This document shows, one piece after another, positions 2,859-9,590 of a stretch of 64,000 nucleotides of DNA. Within the stretch, counting starts at the first letter, position 1. Each line of letters opens with the position of its first letter. Both the position numbers and the translations under genes were made by a program. The stretch is from Akkermansiaceae bacterium. Lineage in GTDB: Bacteria; Verrucomicrobiota; Verrucomicrobiia; Verrucomicrobiales; Akkermansiaceae. Location: assembly GCA_903908495.1 (NCBI GenBank), contig CAIVSK010000266.1, positions 4,674 through 68,673 on the forward strand, given 5' to 3'. The notes under the pieces are model-generated. The model did not search any database, had not been told where the DNA came from, and worked only from the letters and a program-made list of their open reading frames with translations.

Positions 2859-2913
2859 GCATGGGCGGTGCGCGGACTGTCGCGATGCAGTCAACGACCT
2901 CACGTGCACACTC

Positions 2914-3516
2914 TTACGCCACCTCGATTTTCAAACTCGGATCGGTCTCACAGGCGTCGATGATAGCGTTATAGCGGGCGACCAGAGCTATGAAACTGTG
3001 GCGGCGTTGGTTGCCGTCGAAATCAGTCCATTCGAGCATGTTGGCAACGAGGAACTGAGTAATGTCAAGGACTTCCAAGCGACGGCTGATGCCCTCTTCC
3101 TCGGCCAAGGTTTCCGCTTGGGCCGCACCGGCGTTGGTGGAGACGATGAGGGGGCGGAGGCCACGGTCGAGATTGTCGCGGCACTTTTGGAGAAGAAGTT
3201 TCCCGGGAGCTGTGGTGACGTGGATGACACAATCACCAAACTGAAAGTTTCCCACGCGCCCGGTTGGGGAGTCGGAGACAGAGTATCCGCAGTGATTGAT
3301 GGCTTTACCGGGATACAGCGTTTCAAGTTTAGCTCCAACGAGGTGCTGCATCACCAGGCTCAAAATGCTCCCGCCGCATTCGCGGCTTCTGCGCCGCCTT
3401 GCGTCGGCAAACAATGACGTCAGGCATGATTTGATAGACTCACCCTCTGCCAAGACTAACCTCAGAGATGGAGAGGACGGTGGTAAGTTGCATGTTGTGG
3501 AGTTCATCGTGGGCAT
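2914..3516 (-). CDS. Putative type II restriction endonuclease (DUF4928 / BsuBI-PstI-like catalytic core)
   Basis: 200-aa ORF inside a roughly 50-55% GC islet. The core MQHLVGAKLE..GNFQFGDCVIHVTTAPG..KCRDNL resembles the conserved region I remember for DUF4928 and BsuBI/PstI endonucleases. Not verified by any search. Confidence 0.5.
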   Translation of the reverse strand: MPTMNSTTCNLPPSSPSLRLVLAEGESIKSCLTSLFADARRRRSRECGGSILSLVMQHLVGAKLETLYPGKAINHCGYSVSDSPTGRVGNFQFGDCVIHVTTAPGKLLLQKCRDNLDRGLRPLIVSTNAGAAQAETLAEEEGISRRLEVLDITQFLVANMLEWTDFDGNQRRHSFIALVARYNAIIDACETDPSLKIEVA

Positions 3517-3529
3517 TCCATTGGAGTAT

Positions 3530-4300
3530 TCATGCCGGAACCCTGGCGTGCCAGGTTTCGGAGATTTGCTGGCGCTCTCGGCGTGTGAATTCGAGACCTT
3601 GGACCAGCGGGTTCTGGAAGAGGGAGAGCACCGGGCGCTCGTTGAAGTTCCTCACGACGCAGAGATAATACCGGTCCTGAAGGTATTCAGCAACCTGATG
3701 TTCCTTGCTGGTCATCATGACGTCTCCACCGGCACCGGCGATCCCTTTGACTTCAACTGCGAGAAAGGGGCGTGAATCTACTGGTTGCAATCGGAAATCG
3801 AAGCCGCAACCGTAGCGAGTGACATTGGTGAGAGCGTGTTCATTGAACTCTGAAAGCTTTGGGAAGGATGATTCGAAGAATCCTTCGGCGGCCGCGCCGG
3901 TGATGAGGCGTCTGGAGAAGGAATCGTTTTCGAAATTGCTCTCATCGATTGCAGCAAGCTCGTCCATGCCTTCCGGTAGGGGCATCACAGGGGGCAGGAG
4001 CAATGGAGACAACAAGCGGGAAAAATCGAACAATGAGAGGTGTCCAAAACGTTCGAAAGCATCGCGACAGTGAGCGCGCACTTCGCGCTTATGCCAGCCT
4101 TTGCGGTTGTTTGGAAAGAGCGGGTCAAATTCCTGCATGTAATTCTTGATCGAGGCGGGCCTGCCACCCAACGCATATCCAATGGCGTTGTAAGCTTCCC
4201 CAAAACTGGTAAATCCCAAGTGCTGAAGTCCATCCTGACTAAACTTGGATAGGAACATTCCGGCGAGCATCAGGCACTCACGTTGGGAGAAAGGTTTCAT
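3530..4300 (-). CDS. DUF3883-like (restriction-endonuclease-fold) protein with an unassigned N-terminal domain
   Basis: 256-aa ORF. The C-terminal half (GCGFDF..FLAVEVKG..MTSKEHQVAEYL..YYLCVV) fits the DUF3883 E-x-K nuclease-like core. The N-terminal 120 aa (..NYMQEFDPLFPNNRKGWHKR..) are not recognised. Its ATG overlaps the stop of the upstream methyltransferase fragment (ATGA). Confidence 0.5.
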   Translation of the reverse strand: MKPFSQRECLMLAGMFLSKFSQDGLQHLGFTSFGEAYNAIGYALGGRPASIKNYMQEFDPLFPNNRKGWHKREVRAHCRDAFERFGHLSLFDFSRLLSPLLLPPVMPLPEGMDELAAIDESNFENDSFSRRLITGAAAEGFFESSFPKLSEFNEHALTNVTRYGCGFDFRLQPVDSRPFLAVEVKGIAGAGGDVMMTSKEHQVAEYLQDRYYLCVVRNFNERPVLSLFQNPLVQGLEFTRRERQQISETWHARVPA

Positions 4301-4662
4301 CTGCCGATAACTTTAACAAATACAGGCATTTCATCAAGGACCCGCAGCCACTCCCAAAACAGCCCGCTACGGGAGGCGGCGAGCCCGCCCATCTTCCCGG
4401 CAAGGGAGAGATCCTGGCATGGGAAGCTGGCCCAGACGATGTCGCCCTTGGGAATGGTGGCACCGCGAACGTGTTCGATGGAGCCGAGGTGGAAGTGATC
4501 GCTGCCATGGTTCGCAGTGTAAACGGCTGCTTTCTTCGGACAAATATCGTTCGACCAGATGGAAACACAGGCGTGCTTGCCGCCCTGGGTGACAAGACCG
4601 CTGCCGGCGAAGAAATCGACGAATGCTGGGGGGCGTGCGTTCATGAGTTCAAATGAACACAT
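4297..4662 (-). pseudogene. Truncated DNA (cytosine-5) methyltransferase, N-terminal third only
   Basis: 121-aa ORF with C5-MTase motif I (FVDFFAGSGL), motif IV (SFPCQDLSLAG) and the GLFWEW helix. It stops (..MPVFVKVIGR*) where motif VI (ENV) should start. Motifs VI-X and the target recognition domain are absent in all frames downstream. Confidence 0.65.
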
Positions 4663-5084
4663 TCAGATCGGTTCGTCAAACGAAAAATCGGGTCATTTTT
4701 CCGGAGTGGGACCCGCGCCCTGACCTTCCGTCCCAAATATCGGGAATTGCGTGCCCTGAAAGACCCCGGTGGCGGTGGTGCTGTCGTCAGGAATTGTCGG
4801 CTCGGTTTCGTCATCGGTTTTGAGTTTATCCGGTCCCCAGCGTTGCCGCAAGCGCTTTCCATCGCTCCTCAACCGCTGTCACTGAACGGTTCAGGCCCCG
4901 TGAGATTTTCCCGGACGAGCCCCCAGTGAGGCCACCCGCGCCGTTTCCGGCGTGGTCTTGATGTGGCGATTTCGTCACTATCGAGCGATTGCCCGCAAAC
5001 GCGCGGCGGCCAACGTTCTGTCCGGCGAACAGTCCATTGCCGATATTGCATACTTTCCTAACATATCCAATTCTATCTGATTTC

Positions 5085-8000
5085 ATGAAACCATCCTTCT
5101 ATTCCCGCACGTCCAGCCTTCTGTTTGCCTTTGCGACGCTCACCTTCGGCGGAGCGAGCCAGGCGGCCTCCGTCACCTATGATGCCGATACGACCACCAC
5201 CGCCGCCCAAGATGGAGCGGGAGCCGGCTGGCTGACCACCAACAGCAACTTCTGGGATGGCGCCGCCAACGTCGTGTGGCCCAACACCAGCGCCGACGAG
5301 GCGATTTTCGGCGCTGCCAGTGGCGCGGCCGCCAGCGTGACCGTCGGCAGCGTGACCGCCAATAAGATCACCTTCAATGCCGCGGGCTCGGGCAACTACA
5401 CGCTTGCCAGCGGCATCATCACCCTCGCCGGGACCACGCCGACCATTGCCGCCAATGTGGACGCGTCCATCAGTGCGGCGCTGGCGGGCAGCGCCGGGTT
5501 GACCAAGACCGGAGCGGGCACCCTCACGCTGACCGGAGCCAACACGTTTTCCGGAGCCACGACCCTCAGCGCCGGGACGGTGACGGTTGCCGGCAGCAGT
5601 TCGAGCCCCAACAGCACCGGTGCCCTGCTGGTGGGCGGGGCCACCGCCAAAGGCGTGCTTAACATCAACACCAGCGGCACCCTCAACCTCGCCACTGCCA
5701 GCGGCGTTGCAATTCGGGTCGGCGGCAACGCGGTGGCCACCAACAGCGGTGCCGGTGCCCTCAATCAGTCCGCCGGCACCGTCAACCTCGGGCTTGCGAC
5801 CACGACGAATTATCTGGAACTGGGTGCCGGTGGCAGCTCGTACGGTTCATGCCAGTTATCCGGCGGCACGCTCAATATCGTTGCCAACGATGGTTTCCGC
5901 GTCGGTGCCAGCGGCATCGGCTCGTATGTTCAAACCAACGGCACCCTCAACTGCGGCCGCTATCTGGCCATCGGCACCATCGGCGGCGGCCTCACCACCG
6001 GCGGCAAGGGCGTGGCCACCTTCAGCGGCGGCACGGCCAACATCAGCTCCAGCTTCCGCATCATTGTGAGCGACAAACCGAGCGCCGTAGCCACCCTCAA
6101 CATCGGCACCCTGGCGGGCGGATCTGCAATCGTCAACAACCTCAGCGGCAGCGGTGTGACCCTGCTCGGCGACGCCGCCAGCACCAGCGGCATCGTCAAT
6201 CTCAATGCCGGCACCCTGGTGCTGGGCGGCCCGATCAATCGCAACACCGGCAACACGGTTGGCACCGCTGCCGTCAATTTCAACGGCGGAACCTTGCGGG
6301 CAAGCGGCAACGTCGGTCTCATCACCGCTTCGACCGGCACCCTGCTGCCGGTGAATGTCTTCAACGGCGGGGCGATCATCGATACCCAGGCCAATACCGC
6401 AAACATTGCCGCCAACCTGCTGGCCACCACCGGCAACGGCATCTATCCGGCGGGTGGCGTCATTGGGGTCGCCAGCGGCGGCAGCGGCTACATCGGGGCA
6501 CCATTGGTGGCTGTGAGTGGCGGCACGGGCACCGGTGCCACGGCCATTGCCAGTATTGTCGGTGGCGCGATCACCGGGGTGACCCTCACTTCTCCGGGCA
6601 AGGACTACGTGGCTGGCGACGTTGTGACCTTCACCTTCACTGGCGGTGGTGCCCTCAGCGCGGCATCGCCCTTCGCTTACACGCTCACCGCGGGCGATCT
6701 GGCAGCCAACGGCATCGGCGGCCTGACCAAGCTCGGGGCTGGCACGCTCACCCTGTCCGGGACGAACACCTATGCCGGACCGGTCGCGGTGAACAACGGC
6801 ACGCTGGCACTCACGGGTGCCAATGCCACCACCGCGGTTTCACTGGGCAGCGCCACCAGCACCGGCAACCTCGCCATGGGCCAGAGCCTCAGCCTCAATT
6901 CGCTCGTCACCGTCGGTTTGGGTGGCAGCATTGTCGGCGGCAGCTCCACCGTTTCCACTCTCACCCTCAATCAAGCCGCCGGGATCTTGAATCTAACTGC
7001 TCTGGGCGGCGCCACTGGCAACGCTGGCAACCTTTCGCTCGTGCGAACCGGAGCGGGCACCTTTAATGTCGCCGGCAGCACGAACCAACTGGTGGATGCG
7101 ACGATCAGCGGCGGCAGCGTGCAGCTGAGTTCCTTGGCGACCCAAAACCTGACTCTGGGGAATTGCACCGTTGCCATCACCAACCTCCAGGCAGGCATTC
7201 CGGCCATCACAGCAGGCACCAGTTTCACCGCCAGCGGCCCGGTCACGCTCAAGGTTTCCGGTTCCCTAACCACCGGGATCCAGTCGGTGATCGGCTATCC
7301 GGCCGGCGGCACCATCGGCGGCGCCGGCATCGGCGCGTTCACGTTGGAAACTTCGTCATTGCCACGCGGTACCGCCGCCACGCTGGTGGACGATGTGGCG
7401 AGTCACTCGGTGGCCCTCAGCGTGTCCACTTCCAATCCGCTGGCGTGGAAAGGCAACCAAGGAGCCGCCTGGAACATCAACAGTACCAATAACTGGACGA
7501 TGGGCGGATTCGTCGAGCGGTATCTGGAAGGTGATGTGACCGTATTCGACGATTCCGCTTCCACCACCAACGTTAGCTTGGAAGGTAACGTGGCACCCGC
7601 CACAGTCACCTTTACGCATACCGCGAAAGACTACACCCTTTCCGGCAGCGGGGCGATCACCGGGACCACCGGCTTGATCAAAAATGGCGACGGGACCCTC
7701 ACCCTCACCAATTCCAACACCTATGCCGGGACCACCGCCGTGAATGCCGGCACACTCCGTATTGGCAATGGCACCACCGACGGTGGGATCGCCGGACCCA
7801 TCACCGTAGGCGCTGGCGGCACGCTGGATTTCCGCGTTAGCGGGACGCCGACTCATGCCGGATCGATCACCAACGACGGCGTGTTGACGTTCGACACCGC
7901 CGGCACCCTGACGCTTGCGGGCTCGCTTGACGGCTACGGAAACACCTGCGTCAAGTCCGGCAGCGGCAGAGTCGTTTTCACCGGAGGCAACAGCTATGGT

Positions 8001-9590
8001 GGAACCATCGGCATCACCGCCGGTACCTTCCAAATCGGCGACGGCGTCGCGAATGGTACCAGCAGCGGCACCTACGAAATTGCGGCCGGTGCCTTTCTCC
8101 GGATCGAACGCGCCACCGCCGCCGCCCCGGTGTGGTCGGCCATCACTGGAGCGGGCACGCTGGCTTTGAATTCCGCCCAGGCGGTGGATGCCTCGGCGCA
8201 GTGGGGCAGCCTGACGCTGCCCGCCGGCTTCACCGGCACCTTGCGGGTGGAAAAAGGCCGCGTCGGATTCAACTCTGGCAACACCTCCCTCGGCGGTGCC
8301 AGCAAGGTCGAAGTCCTCGTCGGTGCCCAGCTCCTCGCCTTCAGCAGCGCCAATCCCTACACCGCTCCCGTGGATATCGCCGGTGGCGGCTGGGGCGAAA
8401 GCGGGTACCCCGACGGCCTCCGCTTGGCCGCTAGCTCGACCGCCACTTGGGCTGGCAACGTGACCTTGATCGCGGATTCCGGCATCATGGCCCAACGCCT
8501 CTCGAACTTCACCATCACCGGTGCCATCAGCGGGCCGTTCCAGTGCGAATTCTATGTGGGCGACCCGGTGGGTGACTCCGGCATTCTGACCGTGGCACCA
8601 ACCGCCGCCGCGCAGAATTCGTACGCCTCCACCAAGATCAACGGCCGTCCGAGCGCATCGGTGGTCGCCGGTAATGCCTATGCCTTCAGCAGCGGTCCGT
8701 TGCAAGTGGCCGGTGCCATCCTCAAGCTCAACGGCAACAGCTTCAGCTTCGCCAACCTCAGCGGCTCGGTGGGCAGCATCGGCAACTATCATGCCAGCAG
8801 CGCGGCGGGGCTGAGCGTCGGGGCGGACGGCTCCAGCACGGCCTTCAGCGGCGTGATCAGTGATGGCGGCAGCGCCCCGCTGGCCCTGGTCAAGACCGGC
8901 AGCGGCATCCTGACACTAACCGGTGCTAACAGCTACACCGGCACCACCACCGTCAATCAGGGCACGTTGTCCATTACCGTGCCCTATCTGGGGAATGCGT
9001 CCACCGTCACCATCGCCACTGGTGCCAAGCTCGACCTCGCCACAGGCACCGCAGTCGACACCGTCGGCAAGTTGGTGCTCGGCGGAGTTTCCGTGCCGCC
9101 CGGCACCTACAACGCGCTGGATGCCACCTTTGGCAGCTACTTCACCGGCAGCGGCAGCCTGTTGGTGCTGGCGCCCTACGAGGCGTGGGCGGCGCTCAAG
9201 GGCCTCGATAGTTCCAACAACGGCCTTGGCCAGGACCCCGACCACGACGGCCTCTCCAACCTGATGGAGTTCTATCTGAATGGCAACCCGCTGGCCAGCG
9301 ACCCGGCGATGCTTCCCGTGCAGACCCTCGATGCCACCTATGTGACCTTCAGCTTCAGCCGCCGCGACGACGCGGCAGCCGCCGTGACCTCCGAGGCGGC
9401 ACAATACGGCTCGGATTTGCTGGGATGGACGGATGTGCCGCTTGGCACCAGCAGCTCGGGGCCGGACGCCAACGGGGTGATTGTGACGGTCACGCCGAAT
9501 GGTGCCGCGCCGGATTCCATTGTGGTGCAAATCCCGCGCTCGCTGGCACCCGCCGGCGAGTTGTTCGTTCGCCTCAAGGTGGTTAAGTAA
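5085..9590 (+). CDS. Giant secreted autotransporter-associated beta-strand repeat (PATR) protein
   Basis: The ATG at 5085 starts a signal peptide, MKPSFYSRTSSLLFAFATLTFGGASQA. The earlier ATG at 4989 gives a non-signal extension. There are dozens of G-T-L-T-L-(T/S)-G-x-N-(T/S)-Y-x-G-x-T repeats. The C-terminal module carries DPDHDGLSNLMEFYLNGNP. Confidence 0.85.
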   Translation: MKPSFYSRTSSLLFAFATLTFGGASQAASVTYDADTTTTAAQDGAGAGWLTTNSNFWDGAANVVWPNTSADEAIFGAASGAAASVTVGSVTANKITFNAAGSGNYTLASGIITLAGTTPTIAANVDASISAALAGSAGLTKTGAGTLTLTGANTFSGATTLSAGTVTVAGSSSSPNSTGALLVGGATAKGVLNINTSGTLNLATASGVAIRVGGNAVATNSGAGALNQSAGTVNLGLATTTNYLELGAGGSSYGSCQLSGGTLNIVANDGFRVGASGIGSYVQTNGTLNCGRYLAIGTIGGGLTTGGKGVATFSGGTANISSSFRIIVSDKPSAVATLNIGTLAGGSAIVNNLSGSGVTLLGDAASTSGIVNLNAGTLVLGGPINRNTGNTVGTAAVNFNGGTLRASGNVGLITASTGTLLPVNVFNGGAIIDTQANTANIAANLLATTGNGIYPAGGVIGVASGGSGYIGAPLVAVSGGTGTGATAIASIVGGAITGVTLTSPGKDYVAGDVVTFTFTGGGALSAASPFAYTLTAGDLAANGIGGLTKLGAGTLTLSGTNTYAGPVAVNNGTLALTGANATTAVSLGSATSTGNLAMGQSLSLNSLVTVGLGGSIVGGSSTVSTLTLNQAAGILNLTALGGATGNAGNLSLVRTGAGTFNVAGSTNQLVDATISGGSVQLSSLATQNLTLGNCTVAITNLQAGIPAITAGTSFTASGPVTLKVSGSLTTGIQSVIGYPAGGTIGGAGIGAFTLETSSLPRGTAATLVDDVASHSVALSVSTSNPLAWKGNQGAAWNINSTNNWTMGGFVERYLEGDVTVFDDSASTTNVSLEGNVAPATVTFTHTAKDYTLSGSGAITGTTGLIKNGDGTLTLTNSNTYAGTTAVNAGTLRIGNGTTDGGIAGPITVGAGGTLDFRVSGTPTHAGSITNDGVLTFDTAGTLTLAGSLDGYGNTCVKSGSGRVVFTGGNSYGGTIGITAGTFQIGDGVANGTSSGTYEIAAGAFLRIERATAAAPVWSAITGAGTLALNSAQAVDASAQWGSLTLPAGFTGTLRVEKGRVGFNSGNTSLGGASKVEVLVGAQLLAFSSANPYTAPVDIAGGGWGESGYPDGLRLAASSTATWAGNVTLIADSGIMAQRLSNFTITGAISGPFQCEFYVGDPVGDSGILTVAPTAAAQNSYASTKINGRPSASVVAGNAYAFSSGPLQVAGAILKLNGNSFSFANLSGSVGSIGNYHASSAAGLSVGADGSSTAFSGVISDGGSAPLALVKTGSGILTLTGANSYTGTTTVNQGTLSITVPYLGNASTVTIATGAKLDLATGTAVDTVGKLVLGGVSVPPGTYNALDATFGSYFTGSGSLLVLAPYEAWAALKGLDSSNNGLGQDPDHDGLSNLMEFYLNGNPLASDPAMLPVQTLDATYVTFSFSRRDDAAAAVTSEAAQYGSDLLGWTDVPLGTSSSGPDANGVIVTVTPNGAAPDSIVVQIPRSLAPAGELFVRLKVVK

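Follow-up and report, generated by a model that had tools for sequence, protein, structure and literature searches.

A short islet within a 64,000-nucleotide (nt) stretch of contig CAIVSK010000266.1 from an Akkermansiaceae bacterium (the whole stretch is referred to here as the window, and all coordinates are window positions) carries three small open reading frames (ORFs), denoted A, B and C, whose arrangement suggests a gene replacement within a restriction-modification (R-M) operon. ORFs A and C are remnants of a cytosine-5 (C5) DNA methylase gene and a DUF4928 restriction endonuclease gene respectively, and ORF B, which lies between them, encodes a predicted two-domain nuclease whose relatives recur beside the remains of systems that produce 5-methylcytosine (m5C). 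The three ORFs and the features that define them are as follows.

4297-4662, minus strand: ORF A, methylase stub, 121 amino acids (aa)
3530-4300, minus strand: ORF B, two-domain nuclease, 256 aa
2914-3516, minus strand: ORF C, DUF4928 fragment, 200 aa
4297-4306, minus strand: left junction, with an ATGA stop/start overlap (stub TGA at 4297-4299, B ATG at 4298-4300)
3478-3529, minus strand: right junction, where the stop codon of B is followed by 52 nt of DNA unrelated to R-M genes, beyond which homology to full-length DUF4928 genes starts
3998-4300, minus strand: N-terminal all-helical domain of B (aa 1-101), five helices in an AlphaFold2 model with a predicted local distance difference test (pLDDT) score of about 90
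3533-3919, minus strand: C-terminal PD-(D/E)xK domain of B (aa 128-256), DUF3883/NOV_C (PF13020)
3797-3799, 3752-3754 and 3746-3748, minus strand: catalytic residues of B predicted from conservation (D168, E183 and K185 respectively)

A sequence-only reading of this DNA had described three co-oriented minus-strand ORFs, an ATGA overlap between the first two, and a gap of 13 nt between the stop codon of B and the start codon of C, and all of these are where it had placed them. It had also described the islet as being of low guanine-plus-cytosine (G+C) content, at 50-55%; the interval 2859-5084 is indeed lower than its flanks (each flanking gene has a G+C fraction of 0.65, and the whole window 0.631), and at 55.7% lies slightly above that range.

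Two restriction-modification remnants and a nuclease gene

ORF A is the 5′ stub of a C5 cytosine methyltransferase gene. Its match to the Pfam DNA_methylase family (PF00145; E 8e-19) is confined to profile positions 3-100 of 324, and it shares 80% identity with residues 1-110 of an intact 364-aa methylase at a related locus (L004). Motifs I to V are present, including FAGSG and PCQ. The stub stops just before motif VI (ENV), where the sequence-only reading had placed its end, and has neither motifs VI-X nor the target-recognition domain. Homology to methylases stops at the KVI codons (4306-4314), two codons ahead of the stub stop codon, and only ~5 nt of non-methylase DNA precede the start codon of B; the ATGA overlap probably gives translational coupling between the stub and B. 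PADLOC labels ORF A as a Type II or Druantia-like cytosine methylase fragment. Searches by tblastn and with hidden Markov models (HMMs) found no further pieces of a C5 methylase, DUF4928 or Vsr gene in any frame of the 64-kb window, and because the missing methylase parts are nowhere within it the event is a replacement and not a simple frameshift, as had been proposed from the sequence alone.

ORF C matches DUF4928 (PF16280; E 2.2e-31, 109.7 bits against a cut-off of 25) at profile positions 137-306 of 306 only. Its full-length relatives are 311 aa long, and ORF C keeps family residues ~126-311 without the first ~125. The homology starts at ORF C residue 14 (at ‘SSP’), equivalent to family residue ~126 and window position 3477, and the ATG (3514-3516) and first 13 codons of ORF C are new, being supplied by the 52 nt of the right junction. 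When a full-length relative was modeled with AlphaFold2 (pLDDT 88), a helical N-terminal domain extending to residue 126 preceded an alpha/beta domain, and by this model ORF C is predicted to be exactly the C-terminal domain; PADLOC similarly labels it as a Type II restriction endonuclease, C-terminal part only. Residues that do not vary among 24 full-length relatives, with identities down to 46%, are found both in the part missing from ORF C, where they include an EGGRTSRGS-type motif, and in the part that it retains, where they include MQHLVGAK, D193, D201, H210 and K222. Asp201, invariant in all 24, is Asn in the window (codon 3247-3249), and its invariance and position suggest a putative metal ligand. 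The catalytic assignment for DUF4928 is based on these invariant residues because no structure superposes: a search of PDB sequences with the DUF4928 profile gave nothing significant, and Foldseek of the full-length model against the PDB gave no match below E 1e-3.

These features change the view of the islet as one in which an intact-looking endonuclease sits paradoxically next to a dead methylase. The DUF4928 ORF is a fragment, and since ORF C lacks its ~125-aa N-terminal domain and carries D201N, there is no unprotected restriction enzyme in the islet and the paradox dissolves. An inactive endonuclease was among the explanations offered by the sequence-only reading and is essentially right, for a reason (truncation together with D201N) that it had not seen. 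Its description of ORF C as DUF4928/PstI-like is borne out in the first part, and its other family assignments (DNA_methylase and DUF3883) also stand; the second part does not, with no match of ORF C to the BsuBI/PstI family (PF06616) at E≤1. NCBIfam has no family for B or C. With neither a complete C5 methyltransferase nor a complete cognate endonuclease present, the islet does not encode a functional Type II R-M system.

ORF B is assigned to the DUF3883/NOV_C group of PD-(D/E)xK nucleases by a profile match (PF13020, aa 159-225, E 5.2e-12, 46 bits against a cut-off of 22.1), by the D...E-x-K residues, and by an alpha/beta core in its structural model, in agreement with what had been read from the sequence. 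D168, E183 and K185 are identical in 82 of the 82 B loci surveyed (see below). The AlphaFold2 model (pLDDT 84) comprises a five-helix N-terminal domain, a disordered linker and an alpha/beta nuclease domain; when compared with the PDB by Foldseek, the C-terminal domain has a weak generic PD-(D/E)xK resemblance to the SPARDA nuclease domain and to Hjc, with none below E 1e-3. The N-terminal domain contains an invariant basic motif (S-IKNY-x-x-EFDP-x-FPN-x-R-x-GW-x-x-R) and is presumed to be a DNA-recognition domain. The sequence-only reading could not place it, and we too found no match in Pfam, in PDB sequences searched with a B profile, or by Foldseek with the AlphaFold2 model. A profile-profile comparison of this domain as a substitute for the lost N-terminal domain of DUF4928 gave no similarity (probability 0.2%).

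There are 1536 homologues of B (as protein clusters), mostly of 246-258 aa. An exhaustive search of cluster representatives with the N-terminal domain identified 405 (E≤0.001), most of them B-like, and a word-index search with this domain alone returned short fragments only and no new architectures. There are departures of two types. First, the domain also forms the C-terminal half of proteins of ~235 aa. Second, one carrier is an 883-aa AAA_5 (McrB-like) protein whose neighbor is an RE_LlaJI (McrC-like) gene (L172:5001-9130), and there is no methylase or vsr within 5 kb of the AAA_5 protein gene in L172; we note that this pair is a possible McrBC-type system that shares the uncharacterized DNA-recognition domain of B. 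B has no match in the phage collection, and one distant relative in the plasmid collection, so that neither type of element is an evident carrier of the cassette. This relative (31% identical; L086, Hymenobacter sp. NBH84 plasmid NZ_CP043645.1, 178651-189325) accompanies a normally annotated methylase, in a cluster with the order DNA cytosine methyltransferase, sensor histidine kinase (HATPase), hypothetical protein, DUF3883 protein, ATP-binding protein, Z1 domain protein and PD-(D/E)XK protein.

The ancestral operon and recurrence of the cassette

As shown by comparison with related loci, the ancestral unit was a C5 methylase gene (M, ~365 aa) followed by a DUF4928 gene (R, 311 aa) and usually then by vsr, all on one strand. 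In two intact loci (L004, and L005 from Haloferula) a methylase of 364-375 aa overlaps the 311-aa DUF4928 gene by 50 nt. We also examined 80 DUF4928 loci from metagenomes, which are the best-scoring and mostly full-length, and do not give an unbiased frequency of replaced versus intact loci. Seventy-seven have a full-length R gene, with a full methylase upstream in 71 and Vsr downstream in most; four of the other six have little or no upstream sequence, and two have no methylase by the model used. B is present in none of these 77 loci and lies directly upstream of R in all three loci where R is 5′-truncated, such that B and full-length R are mutually exclusive, and in the three truncated loci a methylase stub is present wherever upstream sequence exists. 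The same order and strand are kept in the window, in which the stub has 80% identity, and ORF C 71%, to the matching parts of an intact pair (tblastn); in contrast to the intact M-R-Vsr operon, B is inserted between the two remnants and there is no vsr in the islet. B therefore occupies the position of a gene that replaces restriction genes, like that of hrgA (see below), with flanks homologous to intact M and R. The comparison shows that about 1.1 kb of R-M sequence, from ahead of motif VI of the methylase to about residue 125 of the endonuclease, has been replaced by ~0.83 kb (3478-4305), which is essentially one gene, B, and the 52 nt after it. Such a replacement kills both R-M enzymes, so nothing in the islet needs protection.

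Comparison with a second locus (L001) delimits the unit that appears to have moved.

2905-4859, minus strand: transferable unit (upstream region, stub, B and endonuclease fragment), a contiguous 84% DNA match to L001
4663-4859, minus strand: upstream non-coding region in common with L001, the presumed promoter region of the former methylase gene

The match stops at the unit ends (2905 and 4859), and the flanking genes differ between the two loci. The G+C fraction of the unit is 0.553 versus 0.65 in the flanks. A search for terminal direct or inverted repeats bounding the islet gave only short matches at chance level, with no target duplications around the unit. The region 4663-4859 is now presumed to be the only candidate promoter region for B; a scan for sigma-70 promoters and terminators gave no site upstream of the stub, which is why the promoter assignment is an indirect one, and the organism may use other promoter types. 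The islet is bordered by a 941-aa ORF (33-2858) and a 1533-aa ORF (4989-9590). The latter has Gly/Thr/Ala repeats and a signal-peptide-like start and resembles autotransporter-associated repeat proteins; its initial ~260 nt are of lower G+C content, as on the islet side.

The same stub-B-fragment trio is present in L001/L002, L003/L009, L006, L095 and L096, and the relatives are Akkermansiaceae, Luteolibacter and Haloferula metagenome-assembled genomes (MAGs). Contigs with the closest B homologues also carry short forms of DUF4928. The neighbors of the trio in L001/L002 and in L003 are entirely different, and the B cassette is found in at least nine genomic contexts, with only L003 and L009 being syntenic.

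Relatives of B were confirmed in 338 stretches of a one-genome-per-species collection. We surveyed 82 loci, including the window and the 80 best-scoring of these stretches, by comparing six-frame translations with purpose-built methylase and Vsr HMMs. The loci span the Verrucomicrobiota, Acidobacteriota, Proteobacteria, Patescibacteria, Planctomycetota and other phyla, and are distributed as follows.

Same-strand C5-methylase fragment abutting B upstream: 32 of 82 loci
vsr abutting B upstream: 21 of 82 loci (16 of the 21 are 3′-truncated, with profile ends at 25-103 of 114)
Neither upstream, R, M or Vsr remnants downstream: 10 of 82 loci
Neither, flanked by intact housekeeping genes: 19 of 82 loci

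Remnants of m5C systems thus accompany B at 63 of the 82 loci, and homologues of B do clearly co-occur with methylase stubs and DUF4928 genes, the association on which the sequence-only reading had depended. All 32 abutting methylases are truncated, and no intact methylase abuts B at any of the 82 loci. The fragments start at profile position 1-4 and end at 23, 29, 32, 34, 37, 48, 51, 65, 67, 81, 93, 104-106, 112, 120-125, 136, 141, 170-174, 185 and 209; one extends to 371, without motif X. Of the 76 nearest upstream ORFs, searched independently with Pfam, 24 matched DNA_methylase and 18 matched Vsr, and no wreck of an N6-adenine or N4-cytosine methylase was seen beside B in the 82 loci. Where stub-bearing loci were examined, no more than about 40 nt lie between the end of the stub ORF and the start of B, and a dozen of these loci have an ATGA overlap. 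Downstream of B there are 5′-truncated restriction genes of several unrelated families: DUF4928 from residues ~105-129, HaeII (120-338 of 338), HinP1I (43-208 of 208) and a further family for which there is no Pfam model; in L030, a complete McrC-like gene (DUF2357/PDDEXK_7) follows B. The at least six different downstream contexts indicate repeated independent replacements, all in m5C systems.

This distribution bears on two other ways in which the islet could have arisen. First, it might simply be a decaying R-M remnant, with an unrelated gene that happened to land in a dispensable operon and no link between B and methylation. R-M systems are often lost and rearranged, both enzymes here are certainly dead, the stubs shrink in some lineages, and about a quarter of B loci lie between full-length housekeeping genes with no recognizable remnant. 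Nonetheless, a C5-methylase or vsr abuts B on the same strand in 53 of the 82 loci with no N6 or N4 wrecks among them, the downstream restriction genes come from at least six unrelated gene contexts, truncated R is linked to B in three of three loci versus none of 77 with full-length R, and both the stub and the R fragment are under purifying selection (see below). We regard simple decay as improbable. The sequence-only reading had supposed that inactivating substitutions in the endonuclease would point to it; one candidate for such a change (D201N) is present, and the family survey disfavors the conclusion.

Second, B could be a selfish nuclease of homing or transposase-like type, driving its own insertion into methylase or vsr genes or creating nested deletions beside itself. 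The upstream truncations have right ends ~5-40 nt from the start of B in most loci and left ends that vary, which resembles element-adjacent nested deletions, and the cassette is in many genomic contexts. The insertion points are scattered instead of fixed (methylase profile positions 23-371, vsr positions 25-114), the unit has neither terminal repeats nor target duplications, one internal stub deletion (in L008) is not anchored at B, and B is absent from the phage collection and nearly so from plasmids; a selfish element is accordingly the explanation that we find most improbable. A homing endonuclease gene in particular was considered and rejected, as the junctions at methylase positions 23-371 and Vsr positions 25-114 reveal no fixed target.

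Selection on the methylase stub and the endonuclease fragment

The ratio of non-synonymous to synonymous substitution rates (omega) is 0.04-0.28 for B and 0.06-0.14 for the stub in the clade of the window (0.06 in the comparison with L001). For a 92-codon core of the stub, the differences at codon positions 1, 2 and 3 are as follows.

Window versus L001, both stubs: 5, 1 and 24
L003 versus L006, both stubs: 4, 6 and 29
L004 versus L005, both intact methylases: 8, 5 and 38

The stub in this clade is under purifying selection as strong as that in intact methylases. The flanks of L003 and L009 are 92-95% identical over 10 kb, so the two loci represent a single site inherited vertically. In this comparison, the synonymous and non-synonymous changes number 11 and 4 in the stub (p 6e-5), 16 and 5 in B, and 9 and 8 in the diverged part of the R fragment (p 0.01). 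The R fragment itself is not uniform. Its first ~125 codons are relaxed, with omega ~0.3 (<0.1 for the intact pair), and the last 53 codons are under strong constraint. In the L003 group, the B-proximal R codons have non-synonymous distances (dN) to intact genes of 0.65-0.8. The distal 53 codons are ~90% identical to intact genes. This gradient along the endonuclease arm, decayed next to B and conserved distally, is a prediction of recombination through the arms. R fragments with only ~49% identity to that in the window nonetheless have 195-codon frames that are still open, with their own ATG just after B.

The remnants are not retained in all lineages. In sister lineages the stub is reduced to 48 or 37 codons (L007 and L010), is internally deleted (L008) or is absent (L011 and L013), and the R fragment is absent in L010, L011 and L014. 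In the L003 group the invariant DUF4928 residues Q168, H169, D193, D201 and D206 are lost. Stubs of 23-50 codons in the wider family cannot be generally functional. There are also individual examples of decay: the internal stub deletion in L008 (4660-5004) fuses motif I to ‘LFWEW’, in L015 the stub is frameshifted and B matches residues 1-223 only, and in L096 (2406-3168) B is split over two frames.

The constraint on the remnants raises the question of whether the trio acts as a functional three-protein module, in which the stub, with motifs I-V of the half that binds S-adenosylmethionine, and the dead DUF4928 domain have been neo-functionalized in the window's clade as regulators, sensors or partners of a B effector. 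The stub core evolves like that of intact methylases, with the low omega values and L003/L009 counts (11:4 in the stub, 9:8 in the diverged R part) given above; the diverged R fragments keep their frames open; truncation at residue ~126 falls where the AlphaFold2 model places a boundary between domains; and the trio moves as a unit between genomic contexts. On the other side, close relatives within the B clade have the stub cut, deleted or absent and some have no R fragment, stubs range from 23 to 209 codons across the family and derive from unrelated methylases or from vsr, and the R fragments no longer keep all of the invariant DUF4928 residues (with D201N in the window, and other losses in the L003 group). 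Moreover, the substitution counts are small, and low omega could stem from gene conversion or recombination with intact copies, which can sit nearby (as in L012). On balance we doubt that such a module exists, although it is the alternative that these data bring closest to consideration. A more specific version would make the trio a working defense module in which the half-methylase and the dead DUF4928 domain are sensor or regulatory subunits of B, with the B family converting m5C R-M systems into such modules across phyla; for example, the stub and DUF4928 domain might be decoys or guards that sense phage anti-restriction proteins or depletion of S-adenosylmethionine and then free B. This is less likely still, and we consider it rather improbable. 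These remnants are either co-opted or repeatedly refreshed from intact copies, and in the window's clade the stub and R fragment may still be translated and co-opted for expression of B or as its partners, a role that does not extend to the whole family.

Relationships to known systems and the favored explanation

Among published cases the replacement by B appears to resemble most closely, in behavior, that involving hrgA of Helicobacter pylori. As described in PMC3045609, hrgA (DUF511) codes for a winged helix-turn-helix and PD-(D/E)xK protein and replaces hpyIIIR by homologous recombination, with HpyIIIM inactive in a number of hrgA strains. The likeness to B is of a small gene with a DNA-binding-type N-terminal domain and a PD-(D/E)xK domain, located in an R-M operon where it replaces restriction enzyme sequence; the two alleles exchange by homologous recombination, and the function of hrgA is given as unknown (Ando et al. 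2002/2003, via PMC3045609). There are several differences. The proteins have no detectable sequence relationship, as B has no DUF511 match at E≤1 and matches only NOV_C/DUF3883. B removes the 3′ two-thirds of the methylase gene together with the 5′ third of the endonuclease gene, whereas hrgA is described as replacing R only; B is tied to m5C systems, whereas hpyIII is reported there to be a GATC system homologous to MboI; and B occurs across many phyla and several R-M families with vsr also a target, whereas hrgA/hpyIIIR is a single, species-specific case. The conservation of the methylase stub further sets B apart.

Three other systems have partial similarity to B. One is the group of modified-cytosine-dependent enzymes that includes YenY4I and the McaZI-like DUF3427-DUF3883 fusions, in which DUF3883 is the catalytic domain (PMC6765204). 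Like B, these are modular, with a domain that senses DNA or its modification (presumed, for B) followed by a C-terminal DUF3883 nuclease, are stand-alone, and are encoded near C5-methylase genes and defense loci, but they sense modification through PUA-superfamily domains and/or DUF3427 (PMC6765204), and B has an unrelated all-helical domain. A second is McrBC/LlaJI. The N-terminal domain of B is homologous (profile E 3e-26) to the N-terminus of the 883-aa AAA_5 protein described above, which is the position of the DNA-specificity domain in McrB; B differs in having its own nuclease domain, and it lacks both an AAA+ GTPase and, within the window, a McrC partner. The third is the anti-phage defense protein TmtA of Tiamat, a large protein with an ATPase region, for which the C-terminal domain of B matches the PADLOC models over the C-terminal ~100 residues (best E 5e-10, positions ~1531-1631 of 1655). 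The TmtA models are 1000-1800 residues long and the 256-aa B covers only their terminal nuclease-like part, so classification of B as a Tiamat system was rejected.

We favor, and consider moderately probable, an explanation in which B is a recurrent nuclease cassette that replaces the cores of m5C R-M systems in an hrgA-like manner, is possibly modification-dependent, and is expressed from the promoter of the dead methylase. On this view the islet would be a scar, left where one gene replaced part of a Type II m5C R-M operon. B would be transcribed from the old methylase or vsr promoter, as it has virtually no leader of its own, and ribosomes leaving the stub would probably be handed to B through the ATGA overlap. 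B is likely to be the selected payload, because it is under purifying selection and its active-site residues are conserved in 82 of 82 loci, and its sequence predicts a nuclease that stands alone, in which a helical domain for DNA recognition is joined to a DUF3883 PD-(D/E)xK domain. It may act as a restriction-type defense nuclease tied to cytosine-5 methylation, probably Type IV-like, since the family is linked exclusively to m5C systems and has no adjacent intact methylase; a modification-dependent B would settle only where the resident m5C methylase has been destroyed. By analogy with hrgA, the two arms of the M5′-B-R3′ allele would let it recombine homologously with related R-M loci and so spread among them. 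The comparative pattern behind this explanation is robust; modification-dependence of B is what we infer from it.

There are several observations that this explanation does not accommodate easily. The purifying selection on the stub in L003 and L009 is not explained by a pure ‘scar’ model, and the all-helical N-terminal domain, unplaced by Pfam and Foldseek, is unlike the known m5C readers (SRA, PUA/EVE/YTH and DUF3427). An intact R-M locus that shares flanks with a trio locus, which would be direct proof of allelic replacement in situ, was sought in the sample and none was found. Nor do the counts amount to an unbiased census, as the 80 genome loci are the best-scoring of 338, and the 53 stub-bearing loci represent fewer independent events because the B lineages are phylogenetically related. 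Finally, there are three instances of apparently intact methylation functions close to B, which a generic m5C-dependent nuclease should not tolerate: L012 has an M-R pair, also of the DUF4928 type, at a distance of 4 kb, L065 has a C5 methylase and vsr at ~1 kb, and the plasmid cluster containing the 31%-identical relative has an intact Dcm.

These same three instances are what might be expected if B were instead an ordinary Type II-like endonuclease that cuts unmodified DNA, with the protective methylase encoded elsewhere, such as by a second copy of the same methylase family. The helical N-terminal domain, as modeled, may also fit a protein that binds specific DNA sequences better than a reader that flips bases. 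However, all 32 adjacent methylases are truncated, where an R-M partnership would favor keeping the methylase; there is no methylase other than the stub in the 64-kb window, and most B loci have no other C5 methylase within 5 kb. A Type II-like role for B is therefore, in our estimation, about as improbable as simple decay of the operon.

If the replacement of m5C R-M cores by a nuclease cassette is correct, B represents a widespread and uncharacterized nuclease family whose habitat is the wrecks of cytosine-methylating restriction systems, and it would extend the single, species-specific hrgA/hpyIIIR case to a general mode of defense-system replacement and provide a concrete, testable case in which m5C methylation and a nuclease are in conflict. 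A sharper puzzle is that of a 100-residue half-methylase that evolves like a functional protein long after losing methylation. There is also a caution for annotation: where a DUF3883 gene is flanked by short ORFs labeled ‘DUF4928’ and ‘DNA methylase’, these are remnants and not an R-M system.

Several B loci have additional features. In L012 (1-9400; uncultured Verrucomicrobiae MAG, CAVYVH010000002.1) three methylase 5′ stubs lie behind the intact M-R(DUF4928) pair; they belong to another C5-methylase family and are each of ~110 aa (2057-2428, 3782-4126 and 6646-6981) and 93-95% identical to one another. The cargo after the stubs is a 386-aa ORF in one instance, a 325-aa ORF with B and a decayed DUF4928 fragment in another, and an IS66 element in the third, and the locus looks as though cassettes had accumulated one after another behind copies of a methylase 5′ end. 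A second example of complexity is in L167-L171 (B homologue P0118), where an IS481-family transposase gene lies upstream of B and an IS200-type Y1 transposase gene downstream, followed by a 152-aa ORF and an intact vsr next to metK; here the R-M wreck appears to have been further split by insertion sequences.

Nested 3′ truncations of vsr abut B in L017, L033, L040, L043, L050, L053, L057, L060, L067, L073 and others, and a full-length vsr precedes B in L022, L024, L047 and L062. The vsr stub lengths differ among closely related B genes, which suggests progressive loss of vsr once the methylase has gone. Many of the vsr-stub loci also have one of two small ORF families just downstream of B, neither with a Pfam match, that may be accessory genes. 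D1 proteins are ~100 aa long and contain ‘..ARAGLIPASD..ILADLRHYCD..’ (L017, L022, L033, L040, L043, L051 and L053), and D2 proteins are ~95 aa long and contain ‘MLDLAIS..ETNRG..KAPGWPQDCDFQLVAF..KPDWYRRL’ (L019, L023, L031, L059, L062, L067 and L070).

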